Source: Patescibacteria group bacterium (GTDB lineage Bacteria > Patescibacteriota > Minisyncoccia > UBA6257 > HR35). Taken from it: a stretch of 32,000 nt of DNA. The stretch is taken from assembly GCA_030549845.1 (NCBI GenBank), contig JAUQQN010000004.1:6760-38759 (forward strand), read 5' to 3'. The notes under the pieces are model-generated. The model was not told where the DNA came from, ran no database searches, and saw nothing but the letters and a program-made list of their open reading frames with translations. The position numbers and the translations under genes are program-made. Shown piece by piece: positions 25,386-32,000 of this stretch (position 1 is its first letter; every line of letters starts with the position of its first letter).

Positions 25386-27167
25386 ATGGAAGGATATTTA
25401 AACAAAATAAGAAATTTTGCAATTATAGCCCACATAGATCACGGAAAATCCACTCTAGCTGATAGATTTCTAGAAATTACAAATACTATTCCTAAGGAGA
25501 AATTGATCCCCCAATATTTAGATAGATTATCTTTAGAAAGAGAAAAGGGTATAACTATTAAAATGCAACCAGTAAGAATGTTATATAATGGCTATATTCT
25601 AAATTTGATAGACACCCCAGGACATTCTGATTTTTCTTATGAGGTTTCAAGAGCTTTATATGCTGTTGAGGGAGCAATTCTTTTAATCGATGGTACACAG
25701 GGAATTCAAGCTCAAACTGTTTCAAACTTAAATATAGCTCAAGACCTTGGAATTAGAATAATTCCAGCTATTAACAAAATTGATTTGAACATAATAGAGA
25801 TTGATAAATTAGTAAATGACATCCAAAATCTTTTAAGAACTAAAGATATAAAAATTCATTTAATATCAGCAAAGCTTGGTACAGGAGTTAATGAACTTTT
25901 AGATACTATCATAAAAGAAATTCCAAAACCAAAAATTTTGTCTGAAAAACCTATTGCTTTAATTTTTGACTCACACTTTGATAAACATAAAGGTGTTATT
26001 GCTCATATAAGAGTTTTTGGTGGTGAGTTTAAAAAAAATGAAAAATATTACTTAAAAGCCGTAGGTTGTCAATTCAAAGCCTTAGAAGTAGGATATTTTA
26101 CGCCTGATTTAAAAGAAGCTGACGCCCTAAGAGCAGGTGAAATAGGTTATATTGCTACAGGAATAAAAGAACCAAATATCATAAAGATAGGAGATAGCAT
26201 AACCAAAGATATGAATCAAGAAGCTATTCCAGGTTATAAGGAACCTCAGCCTGTAATTTTTGCTTCGGTTTTCCCCTCAGAAGAGATTTCTTATGAAAAA
26301 TTCAAAGACAATGTTTTTAAATTACAATTAAATGACCCAGCAATCAAATTAGAAAATATAAATTCTCCTGTTTTTGGAAGAGGTTTTTTAATTGGCTGTT
26401 TAGGTTTATTACATCTTGAAATCTTTCAAGAAAGACTTAAAAGAGAAATGGAAACAGAAGTTATCTTAACAATGCCGTCAATAAAATATAAAGTTATTTT
26501 AAAAAATGGAAAAGAAATTTATATACAAAATCCAAAGGATCTTCCTGATGCCTCACAAATTCAAGAAATTCAAGAGCCTTGGGTTAAGGTTTTTATTTAC
26601 TCTCCATTTACATATATTGAAGATATCTATGAATTATTAAAAACTAAAAGAGGGATGATTTGTGGACAAAAAATTTATGAAGGATTTTTAGAAATTGAAG
26701 GAGAACTTCCTCTAGATGAATTAATTACAGGATTTTTTGACAAATTAAAATCGGTAACTTCTGGATATGCTACATTAAATTATGAATTTTTAGAATATAG
26801 AAGGGGAGATCTTGTTAAGTTAGATATCTTGATAGCAGAAGAGATCAATCCTTCGCTTTCAAGAATAGTTGTAAAAAATAAGGCAGAAGAAATAGGAAGA
26901 AAAATTTTAATTGAGCTAAAAAATTCTTTACCAAGAGAACAATTTCCAATTAAATTACAAGCTGCAATTGGGGGGAAAATAATCGCAAGAGAAACAATTC
27001 CTGCTTTAAAAGCTGATGTTGCTGGTTGGCTTTATGGAGGAGATATAACTCGAAAAATTAAATTATGGCAAAAGCAAAAAAGGGGTAAAAAGAAATTACA
27101 AAAATTGGGCAAAGGAAAAGTACGAGTTCCTAATGAAGTTTTAATAAAAATTTTTAGAATCTATTAA
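25386..27167 (+). CDS. lepA: Translation elongation factor 4 (LepA)
   Basis: 593 aa. The GTPase motifs are IRNFAIIAHIDHGKSTLADR, DTPGH and NKID. The LepA-type C-terminal region is present (GGDITRK.KL...QK.GKK). Confidence 0.93.
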   Translation: MEGYLNKIRNFAIIAHIDHGKSTLADRFLEITNTIPKEKLIPQYLDRLSLEREKGITIKMQPVRMLYNGYILNLIDTPGHSDFSYEVSRALYAVEGAILLIDGTQGIQAQTVSNLNIAQDLGIRIIPAINKIDLNIIEIDKLVNDIQNLLRTKDIKIHLISAKLGTGVNELLDTIIKEIPKPKILSEKPIALIFDSHFDKHKGVIAHIRVFGGEFKKNEKYYLKAVGCQFKALEVGYFTPDLKEADALRAGEIGYIATGIKEPNIIKIGDSITKDMNQEAIPGYKEPQPVIFASVFPSEEISYEKFKDNVFKLQLNDPAIKLENINSPVFGRGFLIGCLGLLHLEIFQERLKREMETEVILTMPSIKYKVILKNGKEIYIQNPKDLPDASQIQEIQEPWVKVFIYSPFTYIEDIYELLKTKRGMICGQKIYEGFLEIEGELPLDELITGFFDKLKSVTSGYATLNYEFLEYRRGDLVKLDILIAEEINPSLSRIVVKNKAEEIGRKILIELKNSLPREQFPIKLQAAIGGKIIARETIPALKADVAGWLYGGDITRKIKLWQKQKRGKKKLQKLGKGKVRVPNEVLIKIFRIY

Positions 27168-28750
27168 ATAGAAAGATAAAGGGAGCTTAAAGACCAAAGC
27201 TGGACAGGACATCCCTCAAATCGTAATTCTTTCGCTGAACTTAGTTCGCTCATATAGCCTAAAGTTCCCATTTTTAATAAATTTTTCAAGCTAGCTTCTT
27301 TAATTTTATTTATTATTTCTTCATATTTTTTATAGGAGATCTCTCTCAGTGCATAGGAAGCAATATTATTTATCCAAAACCAAGAATCACCACTATGATA
27401 ACTTCTTGGATCTTCTCCTGTATGGACTTTGTGAAATTCTTTTGATTCCTTATTTTCTGAAGAAAACCCTCCCCATTCTAAATAAAATTTTTCAATTATC
27501 TTATCAAAATATTGTAACCATTCATATTCTTCAAAAAAACTTTTACAAAAGAAATATCCTAAAAAAAGGTTTGGAGAAAGAATCTCGTTCTCTGGATAAG
27601 AGTTTGAGAATATTCTTGCCTTTAATAATGTTTTATATTTTTTATATTCGTCAATCAAATTTAATTTTTCTAGCGCACTTAAGTACATCATATCAATCTC
27701 GAAAGCATTAATTCTATTTTTTGTGTCCATCCAAGTGCTTTTTGGTGGTAATGTTATTATCTCTTTTTTAAAGTCATTTTCCCAAATCTTTAGATATTTA
27801 ATCAATAAGTCATAATTATCTTTTATTGCTTTATTGTCTAAAGAATTTATTAAAAGAAGAAAGGTATCTGCTGTTTTAAGAAAGTTCTCCTCCTTATTTT
27901 TATCCCATATTTCTGCTAAATTGTTTAAATAAAAATTCAAAATCTTTCTTTTAATTTCCAAAATATCTTTATTGAAATTCAAAAATATTAAAGTTAGAAG
28001 TTCATCTCTAAACCACCTTTGAGGGAACCAAAATAAGCCTGCCCTGAATTTTTCTCCATTATATAATGAAAGAATTCTTGAAAATAAAAATTTTTTTAAT
28101 GGATGTTGAATTTCGATATCTATACCACCAAAATAATCTAATAAATCTTCTACCTCAACAACAATTTTGCTTATATATCCTCTCAAAGCTTTTAAAATTT
28201 TGAATTTCCATTCTTTCGCGTTTCTATTCTTATCAAACTCAAAATCTTCTTCAATAAATTCATTTATAAGCTGCAAGTTTCCTTCAAAATTTATTTTAAA
28301 ATACAGATCAAAATTTTCTTCTGTGTTAACAAATTGGATATAAAAAACATTGGTTGAAGGTAAAAAACTATACGGAATTTCTTTATTAAAAACTGAATAA
28401 AGTTTTCTTACATCAAAATAAATAGTTAAAAAAAATGGCTTTATACTCTCTAAATGTAATTTCCCTTTGTTTAAATAAATTTTGACAACATTTCCATCCC
28501 TTAAATAAAGCTCAGCGCTTTTTGTATTTATTATTTTAATGCTTTCTATTTCTTCTTGAAGTTCAATATCAGAAATAACCTTAAAAATTCCTTCTTTTTT
28601 TTCTACCCAATATCCCATATATATACTCTGCTTTTTATGAAACTCTTTTATAAACCAATGGTTGTTTTCCGCTAAAACCAAAATAGGATTTTCAACTTTT
28701 ACTTTATAAAATTCTTGAAGTTCTTTTAATTCTTCATAAACAACTAACAT
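27164..28750 (-). CDS. Glycogen-debranching-enzyme-like (alpha/alpha)6-barrel protein (amylo-alpha-1,6-glucosidase/GDE_C-type)
   Basis: 528 aa. The motifs FWFPQRWFRDELLTLIFL and YHSGDSWFWINNIASYAL resemble the conserved W.RD and YH.G..W.W segments of GDE C-terminal domains. It lies immediately downstream of the glycogen synthase gene. Confidence 0.6.
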   Translation of the reverse strand: MLVVYEELKELQEFYKVKVENPILVLAENNHWFIKEFHKKQSIYMGYWVEKKEGIFKVISDIELQEEIESIKIINTKSAELYLRDGNVVKIYLNKGKLHLESIKPFFLTIYFDVRKLYSVFNKEIPYSFLPSTNVFYIQFVNTEENFDLYFKINFEGNLQLINEFIEEDFEFDKNRNAKEWKFKILKALRGYISKIVVEVEDLLDYFGGIDIEIQHPLKKFLFSRILSLYNGEKFRAGLFWFPQRWFRDELLTLIFLNFNKDILEIKRKILNFYLNNLAEIWDKNKEENFLKTADTFLLLINSLDNKAIKDNYDLLIKYLKIWENDFKKEIITLPPKSTWMDTKNRINAFEIDMMYLSALEKLNLIDEYKKYKTLLKARIFSNSYPENEILSPNLFLGYFFCKSFFEEYEWLQYFDKIIEKFYLEWGGFSSENKESKEFHKVHTGEDPRSYHSGDSWFWINNIASYALREISYKKYEEIINKIKEASLKNLLKMGTLGYMSELSSAKELRFEGCPVQLWSLSSLYLSI

Positions 28751-30502
28751 TTATTTTCTAAAGCTAACGTAATAAAGATCTAAGTAATATTTAATCAGAT
28801 TATCCCAAGAACATAAACTTGCTATTCTTCTTGCTTCTAATTTATTTTGTATTCTTGCAGACCGTGAAAGTCTTGCTATTTTTAACATAATTTCTGAAAG
28901 TTCTTCTACAACTTCTATGTCTCTTCTGTTTTTTCTTCTAATAAAATAAATCCCTGGATATTCACTATTAAATTCAGTTATGGTTTTTAGATAATCACTA
29001 AACCCTGTTGTATCAGAAGTTATAGTCATAATCCCAGACAAAGCTGTTTCTAGTGGAGTATAACCCCATGGTTCATATAATGATGGAAAGACTCCTAAAT
29101 GGCAACCTGAAATAGCATCTTCATATGAAAGATTTAAAAATCCATCTCCGCTTCTTAAATAAATAGGGTAATAAATAACTTTCACCTTATCTTCTGGTTT
29201 ATTTAATAAACCTACTGTTTTTAATAAGGATAAAATTTCATCTTCTGGTTTTAAAAGGTGAGTGGATATTGGATAAGTTTTGCTTGTTTTTAATTGTTTT
29301 ATAATCTGCTGAATCTCTAAAAATTCTTCTTTTGAAAATAAAGTTTCACTTTGAATTTTTTCTTTATGTATTAAATAATGTACTAACCTTCCCTTAATTT
29401 CTGGCAAAAGATCCTCTATCTTTTCTTCCAAATTTCTATAGACATTTAAATTATTAAAAATTAAAGGATCTGGCCCTACTGTTTCAGAAGGAACAAAAAT
29501 AAATGCATAAATTTGAGGGTCTTTTTCATTTAATTTTTTATTTAATTCTCCCAAAGCTCTTATAAAAATATCAATTCCTTTATTTCTAATTTCTTTCCTT
29601 CCACTTATAAAATATAAAAGGCTCTTTGAAACTTCTACTTTATAAAATGGCGAAAAGAAGTATAAAATAAAATCCCTTATCAAATCTCTGTTTTTTCTAT
29701 GGAGATAAGTAATTTCTTCAATTGTAGCAAATTTTGTAATATCAATTCCATTAGGCAAAATAAAGTCTGGCTTTCTTTCTAATATAATTTCTGTTTCCGT
29801 TTTTAATACATTACTAATAACTGTAAAAAAGTCTGCTTTTTTAGCTGTAATCTTTTCTATCATATGCTTTGCTTCAACACCATACTTATAAGCTTCCTCA
29901 TCTGGTTTTATTGAATAAAGCTTTTCCCATAAATTACCTCCTGACTCGCTAATCGCTCTTCCTAAAACAGTAGCGTGCGTTGTAAAAATTGTTACAAAAG
30001 GTAATCTTTCAAATAAAATAATAGATCCGGATAACCACTCATGAAGATGCAAAACTTTAGGAATATTGGATAATTTTTCTCCTAATATTTTTAAAAATAT
30101 AGAAGAGGCCCTACACCAAGCAATTGGATGATTATAATCATCTCCTGTTCTTAAGCTATCTACTCTATAATTTGCCCAGAGTTCATACTTCAATGCATTA
30201 ACTTTATCTAAAAAACTTGAATAATCAATCAAAAAGCACTTTGGTCTGGAATTTATTAACCATTCTCCATAATAAACTTTTATTCCAAATTTTTCTGCTT
30301 CTTCTATTACATCTTTAAAAATATCTGGTGGAGTAATTTGAGAAAATTCTAAATAGCTTACTTCTGGAATATAAGGCCCAAGTAAATAATATTCCTCGTT
30401 AAAGTTTTTTTGAATATAAGGAGCCTTGCCTTTAATGACTGTATAAATTCCCCCAACTTTGTTTGCTACTTCCCAACTTGCTTCTATTAATAATTTTTCC
30501 AT
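28751..30502 (-). CDS. Glycogen synthase, eukaryote/GT3-type
   Basis: 583 aa with long collinear matches to animal and fungal glycogen synthase as I recall it. [16 protein letters not shown] matches human [37 protein letters not shown] and [11 protein letters not shown] also match. [20 protein letters not shown] matches [20 protein letters not shown]. Confidence 0.88.
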   Translation of the reverse strand: [583 protein letters not shown]

Positions 30503-31264
30503 TTATAAAATCTCAGTTAATACGAGATTTCCTTCTTTTAAAATTGCGACTGTAACTTCAAAATGGGATGAAAGTGAATTATCATGTGTTTTAAATTCAA
30601 AATCATTAATTTGAACTGCATATTCTGATGAAAAGCTTGCCATTGGTTCTATTGTGAAAATCATTCCTCTTTTTAATTTTAAGCCCTTTCCTTTTTCACC
30701 AAAATTTAAAATTTGTAAATTTCCATGTAAATATTCTCCTATGTCATGCCCACATAAATTTTTTATCACTTTAAAATTATAACTTTCTATAGTATTTTTT
30801 ATAGCAAAACCTATGTCTCCCAATGTATTTCCTTCTCTTGCAATATCTATGGCATTAATTAAAGCTTTTTTTGTTGCCTCTATTAAAAGCTTCGCTTTTT
30901 CTGAAATTTTTCCTACACCTATAGTTTTAGCTGCATCTAGATAAAAATTTTTATAAATAATTCCTATATCCAGTTTTACTAGATCTCCTTCTTTTATTAT
31001 TTGATTATTTTTAGCGATTCCATGGACTATAATTTCATTTAAAGAGATACAAATATTTCTTAGGAAAGGTCTTTTTGCAAAGTCTGGCTTATAACCTTTA
31101 AAAGCACTTTTTACATTATATTTTCTAAAAATTTCTCCAGCTTTCCTATCTATCTCTAAAGTTGGAATTCCTGGTCTTATATATTCTTCTAATTCCTGGA
31201 ATATGTTTTTTAAAATATTCCCTCCTTCTTTCATTATTTTGATTTTTTCTTCAAATTTTTTCAT
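30503..31264 (-). CDS. map: Methionine aminopeptidase, type I
   Basis: 253 aa. The metal-ligand context reads VHGI..., D(L)VKLDIG, GHDIG, FTIEP and (H)FE..V. Confidence 0.9.
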   Translation of the reverse strand: MKKFEEKIKIMKEGGNILKNIFQELEEYIRPGIPTLEIDRKAGEIFRKYNVKSAFKGYKPDFAKRPFLRNICISLNEIIVHGIAKNNQIIKEGDLVKLDIGIIYKNFYLDAAKTIGVGKISEKAKLLIEATKKALINAIDIAREGNTLGDIGFAIKNTIESYNFKVIKNLCGHDIGEYLHGNLQILNFGEKGKGLKLKRGMIFTIEPMASFSSEYAVQINDFEFKTHDNSLSSHFEVTVAILKEGNLVLTEIL

Positions 31265-31871
31265 TTTGGATATATTTTAAAACGTCCTTATGAACTTCGT
31301 TTTGGGATTTTTCTCCATTTATTTCAATTAATAATTTTCTTTTCTTTAACCAATCCAACATTGGTTTTATTTCTTTTTTAAAAACTTTTAACCTTAATTT
31401 AACAGATTTTAAATTATCATCAGGTCTTTTTTCTTTTCTACCCAATGCTCTTTTAATAGCTGTTTTATCAGATATTTTTAAGTAAAAAAAGAGAATTTTT
31501 ACATTTTGAAAGTTTTTTAAAAAATTTAAATACGTTTTTGCCTCAAATAAACTTCTTGGTGATCCTGCAAAAATTATGTTCTTTTTTTCTTTTATTTTCT
31601 TTTTTAAAACATTTAAAATAATATAGCTAACTAATCTATAAGAGGCAAGTTTTCCTTTTTCCATTATTTTTTTCTGTTTCTGAATATTTATTCTTATCTT
31701 CCCTATTTTTAAATATTTTTTCTTAAATGAATTAATAAAGTTTTTTATTTCTTCGCTTGTAGTTATAACTTCAAAATCTAACTTTTTAGACAATAGCTTC
31801 GCTTGAGTATTTTTACCGCAAGCAGGTTTTCCTGTAAAGAAAACAATAGTTATAGAAGTAATTTTTTGCAT
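31251..31871 (-). CDS. adk: Adenylate kinase (divergent P-loop)
   Basis: I trimmed the start to the ATG at 31871, because the longer ORF is a read-through of tRNA-Ile. The P-loop is FFTGKPACGKNTQAKLLS (canonical GPPGAGKGTQA). It also has RPDDN....RLKVFKKEIKPMLDW and sits in the conserved adk-map order. Confidence 0.75.
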   Translation of the reverse strand: MQKITSITIVFFTGKPACGKNTQAKLLSKKLDFEVITTSEEIKNFINSFKKKYLKIGKIRINIQKQKKIMEKGKLASYRLVSYIILNVLKKKIKEKKNIIFAGSPRSLFEAKTYLNFLKNFQNVKILFFYLKISDKTAIKRALGRKEKRPDDNLKSVKLRLKVFKKEIKPMLDWLKKRKLLIEINGEKSQNEVHKDVLKYIQNEKI

Positions 31872-31882
31872 ATTTGTGCTTA

Positions 31883-31954
31883 TGGGTGCGCCAGGGATCG
31901 AACCTGGGACCTCTGTCTTATCAGGACAGCGCTCTACCACTGAGCTACGCACCC
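31883..31954 (-). tRNA. tRNA-Ile (anticodon GAU); no encoded CCA
   Basis: The reverse complement is GGGTGCG-TA-GCTC-AGTGGTA-GAGC-G-CTGTC-CTGATAA-GACAG-AGGTC-CCAGG-TTCGATC-CCTGG-CGCACCC-A. It folds as a cloverleaf with anticodon loop CU-GAU-AA. Confidence 0.9.
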
Positions 31955-32000
31955 TTAATTAAAATTATAAAAAATTTTAAGCCTCATTGCATCATGAAGT

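Follow-up and report, generated by a model that had tools for sequence, protein, structure and literature searches.

We analyzed a 32,000-nt stretch of a Patescibacteria genome (contig C6:6760-38759 of genome G000, hereafter the window) in which a glycogen synthase gene of glycosyltransferase family GT3 lies beside a gene related to the glucosidase part of glycogen debranching enzymes (GDEs). The genome is 641 kb on 10 contigs, 99.2% complete, and ~28% G+C, and the names of homologues put it with the Parcubacteria/Paceibacteria. The first gene encodes a 583-aa predicted GT3-family glycogen (alpha-1,4-glucan) synthase (P0001; 28751..30502, minus strand), and the second, following it with a gap of 0 nt, encodes a 528-aa stand-alone GDE_C/GH133-like six-hairpin glucosidase (P0002; 27164..28750, minus strand). 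Directly upstream of GT3, again at 0 nt, is map, for type I methionine aminopeptidase (30503..31264, minus strand; TIGR00500, E 1.3e-70), which overlaps by 14 nt the adenylate kinase gene adk (31251..31871, minus strand; PF00406, E 3.6e-18, from residue 40 of the long open reading frame, ORF). The longest adk ORF begins at a GTG at 31952 and runs into tRNA-Ile (31883-31954), so we placed the true start, probably, at the ATG at 31871, 11 nt from the tRNA. On the other strand, lepA (EF4; 25386..27167, plus strand; TIGR01393, E 7.9e-206) converges on the pair, and its stop codon overlaps that of the GDE-like gene (27164-27167), leaving no intergenic room for a terminator on either strand; the adk-map-GT3-GDE unit is thus bounded on its 3′ side by this overlap. 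Promoter and terminator scans of 26500-32000 returned nothing beyond shuffled expectation. The first-pass annotation of this DNA had the pair apparently co-transcribed with map and adk, which is plausible given the 0-nt and overlapping junctions and the gene order kept in relatives' contigs; transcription of GT3-GDE may thus ride on the adk-map operon.

The same annotation had read P0001 as a GT3 enzyme, aligning over its full length with animal and fungal glycogen synthases and distinct from bacterial GT5, and our searches bear this out. The Glycogen_syn profile (PF05693) spanned residues 7-577 at E 5.2e-125 (418.9 bits; cut-off, 27), whereas GT5/GlgA models gave E values of 1e-3 to 1e-6, far under their cut-offs, and no GT5 or GT4 model exceeded 27 bits. 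Sequence matches in the PDB were to GT3 enzymes only: Caenorhabditis elegans gsy-1 (4qlb; 4.8e-101), yeast Gsy2p (2.6e-97), and human GYS1 (1e-94). The motifs and coordinates quoted for both proteins were exact in the translations; in P0001 the motifs are a 13-residue segment at 10-22, HEWLSG at 154-159, an 11-residue segment at 172-182, KPDFILPNG at 244-252, and a 20-residue segment at 466-485.

Functional residues of P0001 were read from a HMMER alignment to native-numbered Gsy2p (6u77). The catalytic and diphosphate-binding residues E169, H193, R320, K326, E509, and E517 of Gsy2p correspond to E155, H176, R302, K308, E477, and E485 of P0001, and all six are invariant in an alignment of 24 homologues from the candidate phyla radiation (CPR) and DPANN archaea. 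In the glucose-6-phosphate (G6P) pocket, Gsy2p H286, K290, H500, R583, and R587 correspond to H268, R272, H468, R550, and K554, each identical or conservatively replaced; across the same 24 homologues H268, H468, and R550 are invariant and K554 is at least 90% conserved. The arginine cluster is partly kept, with two phosphate-sensing arginines lost (R581 to S548 and R589 to E556), and because P0001 ends, with its alignment, near Gsy2 residue 616, the eukaryotic phospho-regulatory tails are absent. In human GYS1 the uridine is sandwiched by the aromatics F481 and Y493 (PMC9287172), which correspond to Y448 and Y460 of P0001; the nucleotide site is kept, a match that does not discriminate uridine from adenine. 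From residue conservation we conclude that P0001 should be an active GT3 enzyme, one that is plausibly G6P-sensitive and would work without phospho-regulation.

The downstream product had been assigned a GDE_C-type (alpha/alpha)6 domain unlike GlgX, and both profile and predicted fold agree. PF06202 (GDE_C) matched P0002 at E 2e-8 (34 bits; cut-off, 21) over residues 364-524 and profile positions 201-365 only; its orthologues in relatives, which align with P0002 at E 9e-35, match GDE_C positions 5-365 at 96-107 bits (E 1e-27 to 1e-31). The motifs WFRD (246-249) and YHSGDSWFW (451-459) were confirmed, and an NCBIfam search with P0002 gave no match. An AlphaFold2 model made with 42 homologues had a predicted local distance difference test score (pLDDT) of 95.3 and a predicted template modeling score of 0.94, and shows an N-terminal beta-sandwich (~1-200) that leads into an (alpha/alpha)6 barrel (~217-527). 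[quoted passage not shown] In VIA-align the highest score went to the glucosidase domain of Candida glabrata GDE (5d06; Z 29.9), ahead of 7VMA, which aligned over 446 residues (Z 27.0). The margin over other families of six-hairpin fold, namely GH116, GH15, GH100, GH37, and GH63 (Z 24-25.4), was modest.

Three acidic residues of P0002, D249 (in WFRD), D342 (in TWMD), and E502 (in SELSS), are invariant in the 42 sequences. In the model, D249 lies where helix 2 starts, D342 follows helix 5, and E502 precedes the last helix. By topology, they would be equivalent to D1078 and to the general acid and base carboxylates D1241 and E1492, respectively, of the C. glabrata enzyme (CgGDE; PMC4837477). P0002 has no GH13-like 4-alpha-glucanotransferase part, its first 200 residues forming the beta-sandwich, and is therefore of the archaeal/bacterial single-activity type rather than the eukaryotic bifunctional debrancher. 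The likeness to eukaryotic and archaeal debranchers proposed earlier thus holds for the GDE_C fold and the archaeal stand-alone type, but not for the eukaryotic glucanotransferase half, which is missing. Of the archaeal enzymes, 7VMA has been characterized experimentally as an alpha-1,6 debrancher acting directly on maltodextrins (PMC9142091), and glycogen builds up to excess in a Sulfolobus mutant null for GH133 (PMC11046441).

The arrangement around the pair recurs in related lineages. Among 13 metagenome contigs of relatives, map stands directly before GT3 in 11, and in 10 of these GDE follows to complete the map-GT3-GDE series, the eleventh contig stopping at GT3; where the contigs extend further, there is an adk-sized ORF (~200 aa) before map and a convergent lepA downstream of GDE. 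To judge from this conserved gene order, the position of GT3-GDE behind map is old. The nearest available DNA is ~50-70% identical at the protein level, and because synonymous sites are saturated at that distance we judged constraint by protein identity against the neighboring housekeeping genes. Identity to relatives was 63-71% for GT3, 63-69% for Map, 74-76% for LepA, and 42-53% for GDE. GT3 is as conserved as Map and is therefore functional, under constraint comparable to that on an essential gene.

The closest relatives of P0001, at 42-78% identity and 520-1060 bits, come from Patescibacteria and DPANN archaea; eukaryotic enzymes reach ~330-342 bits. Among 121 sampled genomes from the window's class, GT3 was present in 12 and GDE_C in 25, and all 12 GT3-positive genomes also carried GDE_C. 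At one relative's locus the Pfam order is GT4 - GH57 - GT3 - GalT-like HIT - GDE_C, and the cluster GT4-GH57-GT3-(GalT-like)-GDE recurs across CPR and DPANN. We counted neighbors with local hidden Markov models made from class relatives, run on 80 named GTDB-species loci and the class loci. Near the GT3 of 19 Patescibacteria loci, GDE_C lay on the same strand within two genes in 16 and within five genes in 16, with GH57 and GT4 within five genes in 13 each. For 33 loci of DPANN and unclassified archaea (Woese-, Nano-, Iain-, Nanohalo-, and Altiarchaeales included), the corresponding counts were 7 and 17 for GDE_C, 20 for GH57, and 18 for GT4. All four counts were 0 at the 20 Bacteroidota loci and likewise at the 13 Planctomycetota loci.

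A quick maximum-likelihood tree of 86 GT3 proteins, unrooted and composed of prokaryotic sequences without eukaryotic ones, split at 100% SH-aLRT (Shimodaira-Hasegawa-like approximate likelihood ratio test) support into Bacteroidota, Planctomycetota, one Leptospiraceae, and one Bdellovibrionota on one side and CPR, DPANN, and unclassified archaea on the other. The window's GT3 groups at 100% support with those of two Parcubacteria, L048 and L049 (AP024681, KatS3mg097). CPR and DPANN sequences interleave, and the backbone within their clade is weak (86-93), so that this unrooted tree does not resolve how many transfers there were or which way they went. The label "eukaryote-type" given to P0001 is thus right as to the GT3 family and misleading as to kinship: by sequence, the gene belongs to a prokaryotic CPR and DPANN clade, with no recent eukaryotic origin indicated. 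Tree and synteny together suggest that ultra-small bacteria and ultra-small archaea have exchanged the whole glucan cluster. Several contigs assigned to other taxa also carry GT3, often with GDE, GH57, and GT4: L086 (JAIVYO010000076), from a "Campylobacterales" metagenome-assembled genome (MAG), and L053, L060, L063, L064, L066, and L068, from "uncultured Methanosarcinales" MAGs. Their GT3s nest among those of DPANN, and the taxonomic assignment of the contigs or bins may be wrong.

The first-pass annotation had treated the pair as a whole module, a view we revise. A GT4 (384 aa) and a GH57 (390 aa) gene, 2 nt apart, lie at C2:184719-187048 (L001:329-2658, with GT4 at 329-1483 and GH57 at 1486-2658), directly upstream of pilB, and by homology and synteny we identify these as the second half of the alpha-glucan cluster known from CPR and DPANN, contiguous with GT3-GDE in relatives and here split from it. 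The best solved relatives of the GT4 protein are MshA, Pyrococcus GlgA, and GlgM, and it has a GlgA-like N-domain. The GH57 model (pLDDT 91.7) compares best with a small amylopullulanase of the same family from Aquifex (Z 34) and less well with GH57 branching enzymes (Z 28-30), so that a role for this protein as the missing branching enzyme is unsupported but conceivable. The genome also encodes a ROK-family, glucokinase-like sugar kinase (C9:77406-78173; L132) and a mutase of the phosphoglucomutase/phosphomannomutase (PGM/PMM) family of uncertain specificity. The ROK gene was not found in three genomes of the same order (G123-G125), and a different trio from that order (G031, G066, and G095) has neither GT3 nor GDE_C.

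We consider it probable that the pair supplies the synthase, along with one of the hydrolases, for a glycogen-like alpha-glucan store in the cytoplasm, of the CPR/DPANN type and mobilized hydrolytically, and storage-polysaccharide metabolism, as suggested at the outset, is the best reading of the locus. In the mechanism we infer, with its substrates, direction of flux, regulation, and sugar-nucleotide source, GT3 would extend alpha-1,4-glucan chains from nucleoside diphosphate (NDP)-glucose and would probably still respond to G6P, freed of the eukaryotic phospho-regulatory tails. P0002 would act as an inverting glucosidase with one activity, like the stand-alone enzymes of archaea, and hydrolyze alpha-1,6 branches or stubs, or trim chain ends, at mobilization. 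Partners of the pair would be the unlinked GT4, as a possible primer enzyme or second synthase, and the amylopullulanase-like GH57 hydrolase, and the ROK-type kinase and PGM/PMM-family mutase would link glucose, glucose-6-phosphate, and glucose-1-phosphate. Degradation is taken to be hydrolytic because no phosphorylase (PF00343) was matched in the 99.2%-complete genome; GH77 (PF02446) was not matched there either. This type of system is already known, as a prokaryotic glycogen kit common to CPR and DPANN: the DPANN gene set has been described as a hallmark, with genes that are adjacent and expressed (PMC10266531; PMC11046441), and CPR metabolic maps include glycogen synthase (PMC5220378).

Several results weigh against a glycogen-like store. 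Genome-wide searches found no NTP_transferase of the GlgC/GalU type (PF00483), NTP_transf_3 (PF12804), GalT (PF01087), GH13 (PF00128), glycogenin GT8 (PF01501), or classical phosphoglucose isomerase (PF00342), and no eukaryotic UDPGP (PF01704), this last a weak negative with a silent control set; tblastn with relatives' nucleotidyltransferases against the genome also returned nothing. Pyrophosphorylase, branching enzyme, and phosphorylase were thus all surveyed and none was recognized, which extends from the window to the genome the earlier remark that glgC, glgB, and glgP are missing (PF00483, PF00128, and PF00343). As no branching enzyme is recognizable, a "debranching" role comes without a demonstrated branched substrate. 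For P0002, a PDB sequence search with the protein and its 42-sequence profile gave no match, and so no residue-by-residue mapping onto a solved GH133 enzyme, and the other six-hairpin GH families score just 3-5 Z units lower than GH133. We also know of no CPR or DPANN GT3 that has been biochemically characterized.

The supply of the glucosyl donor deserves separate consideration. Among the 12 GT3-positive genomes of the class, that of the window is the only one without PF00483. The closed genome of the relative KatS3mg097 (AP024681, G121), which carries GT4-GH57-GT3-GDE, also has no detected PF00483, PF12804, or PF01704, so the absence is probably real. The window's genome nonetheless has several GT4-like glycosyltransferases and, at C2:239079-240787, two genes for NDP-sugar epimerases/dehydratases, making nucleotide-sugar supply a genome-wide puzzle. 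In many CPR and DPANN clusters a GalT-branch HIT gene sits between GT3 and GDE_C (L040:8678-9637 and 18 further loci, e.g., L054:4117-5085 and L065:5317-6261). The closest solved relative of this cluster-type HIT protein is Arabidopsis At5g18200 (1z84/2h39; E 6e-69), with Escherichia coli GalT at E 1e-31. We take At5g18200 to be an ADP-glucose phosphorylase, as McCoy et al. reportedly described it in 2006, and ADP-glucose is therefore at least as plausible a donor as UDP-glucose. In our literature search we found no paper on such a HIT gene in prokaryotic glycogen clusters, and a search on ADP-glucose phosphorylase gave plant papers only.

A cluster-type GalT-like gene was sought in the genome by tblastn, and the match on C9 turned out to involve only a Hint-like HIT protein of 136 aa, encoded behind hisS. 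At this locus (C9:42434-44134; L047:3434-5134), hisS (424 aa) is followed, after one stop and 15 nt, by the Hint-type HIT gene in the same frame, and a tblastn match spans both genes as if they were one. A divergent 323-aa GalT-branch HIT protein is encoded at C2:173293-174264 (L128:5294-6265, minus strand), with an H-P-H-F-Q motif and the segments YDPFC and EHPHFQIF. Its one weak Pfam match is DUF4931_N (E 0.003), with none above cut-off; a 35-sequence profile of it picks up 1z84 at E 3e-4 and, at E 5e-3, yeast Apa2, and hhalign pairs it with the cluster-type family over 269 columns at 98% probability (E 7e-14), the HxHxQ motifs of the two lining up. In a profile scan of the class genomes, strong members were seen only in G000 and its two nearest GT3-bearing genomes (G121 and G122), and in KatS3mg094 and KatS3mg095 they share long contigs with GT3. 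The profile also gave weak HIT-core matches to a ~345-aa protein in 69/121 class genomes regardless of GT3, so the argument from co-occurrence is weak, and we did not adopt the family as a glycogen-specific marker.

One proposal that would account for the donor is that a GalT-branch HIT enzyme, run in reverse, converts glucose-1-phosphate and NDP to NDP-glucose and Pi with no pyrophosphorylase of the GlgC/GalU type, in a cluster laterally exchanged between CPR and DPANN, and that the divergent HIT protein at C2:173293-174264 is the sole NDP-glucose source in the window's lineage. We offer this tentatively and regard it as doubtful in its full form; if true, the HIT route would be an ATP-sparing path to glycogen. 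Alternatively, nucleotide sugars may be taken up from the host.

Such uptake is also part of an explanation by salvage rather than storage, in which GDE_C and GH57 would hydrolyze host-derived malto-oligosaccharides or glycogen fragments and GT3 would buffer excess with scavenged NDP-glucose. CPR bacteria are generally host-dependent, and the lack of a PF00483-type nucleotidyltransferase in the genome and its closed relative, despite the NDP-sugar epimerases and many glycosyltransferases of the former, suggests that nucleotide sugars may be imported; the want of an identified branching enzyme fits salvage as well. However, the N-termini of GT3, GDE, and GH57, the three we inspected by eye rather than with a predictor, show no signal peptide or membrane segment, which also makes the processing of host glucans at the surface, raised in the first-pass annotation, unlikely. 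No maltodextrin transporter was seen, though no search was aimed at one. The conservation of GT3, as strong as that of Map, argues for a core role of the synthase, and homologous DPANN systems are expressed and have been read as de novo storage (PMC10266531). Salvage in place of storage therefore seems to us unlikely.

We think it improbable, too, that GT3 makes some other alpha-glucoside, such as a protective or compatible-solute oligosaccharide or an envelope glucan, with the GDE_C-like protein as its specific hydrolase. Six-hairpin enzymes of GH63 and GH37 hydrolyze glucosylglycerate and trehalose, and many alpha-glucoside hydrolases of this fold score only slightly lower than the debranchers against the P0002 model (Z 24-25). 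The match of P0002 to just the C-terminal half of the GDE_C profile and the failure to find either a branching enzyme or glycogenin point the same way. To our knowledge, however, all characterized GT3 enzymes are glycogen synthases, and P0001 keeps both the active site and the G6P site. The conserved neighbors belong to starch- and glycogen-type families (GH57, and GT4 with its GlgA-like N-domain), and the best structural matches of P0002 are true glycogen debranchers.

That the pair is a decaying, non-functional remnant of a larger CPR/DPANN cluster whose donor-forming step was lost is very unlikely, for although the cluster is split in this genome, neither the cluster-type GalT-like gene nor NTP_transferase was found there, and P0002 is shorter (528 versus ~600 aa) and more divergent than its orthologues, both ORFs are intact with invariant catalytic residues, GT3 matches the essential Map in identity to relatives, and map-GT3-GDE with intact genes persists in lineages diverged to ~45-50% GDE identity.

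A glycogen-like store as the preferred reading would mean that a bacterium whose free-standing genome is among the smallest has retained glycogen-type storage, with selection on it matching that on an essential housekeeping gene, and that the toolkit for this storage is the DPANN/CPR version (GT3, GH133, GH57, and GT4), not the textbook bacterial one. The published GT3 tree comprises DPANN, Euryarchaeota, PVC (Planctomycetes-Verrucomicrobia-Chlamydiae), Bacteroidetes, and eukaryotes only (PMC11046441), and the present data add Patescibacteria to this phylogeny. They also isolate the question of where NDP-glucose comes from in genomes without a pyrophosphorylase, and the enzyme pair offers a convenient target for studying donor specificity and G6P control outside eukaryotes.

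Of the known systems, the closest counterpart is the set of glycogen genes in DPANN archaea, for example the Nanohaloarchaeota synthase beside a GDB1-type debrancher and a GH57 amylase (PMC10266531; PMC11046441). The two share the GT3 clade, an often adjacent GDE_C partner, GT4 and GH57 neighbors, and cytoplasmic enzymes with hydrolytic mobilization and no phosphorylase. They differ in that the described nanohaloarchaea have a nucleotidyltransferase, of which none is detectable in this genome, and in that the pair, here in a Patescibacteria host, is grafted onto adk-map apart from GT4-GH57. With eukaryotic GT3 enzymes (Gsy2p, GYS1, and gsy-1) P0001 shares full-length homology, identical catalytic residues, the G6P core of H268, H468, R550, and K554, and the aromatics Y448 and Y460, but it lacks their N- and C-terminal phosphorylation tails, has a partial arginine cluster, and comes from a genome with no detected glycogenin.

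P0002 resembles the stand-alone archaeal amylo-alpha-1,6-glucosidases (7VMA and the Sulfolobus GH133 "GlgX") in joining a beta-sandwich to an (alpha/alpha)6 barrel with no transferase domain, though it is ~14% identical to 7VMA and ~90 residues shorter. With the eukaryotic bifunctional GDEs (5D06; human AGL) it shares the fold of the C-terminal glucosidase (GC) domain (Z 29.9) but not the ~1000-residue N-terminal GH13-like 4-alpha-glucanotransferase part, and it therefore cannot alone carry out eukaryote-style indirect debranching. The classical bacterial GlgC-GlgA-GlgB/GlgP-GlgX pathway differs in its families, since GT5, PF00483, GH13, and GT35 were not found in the genome under study; what it has in common with the system described here is a presumed alpha-glucan product and the logic of storing and mobilizing it.

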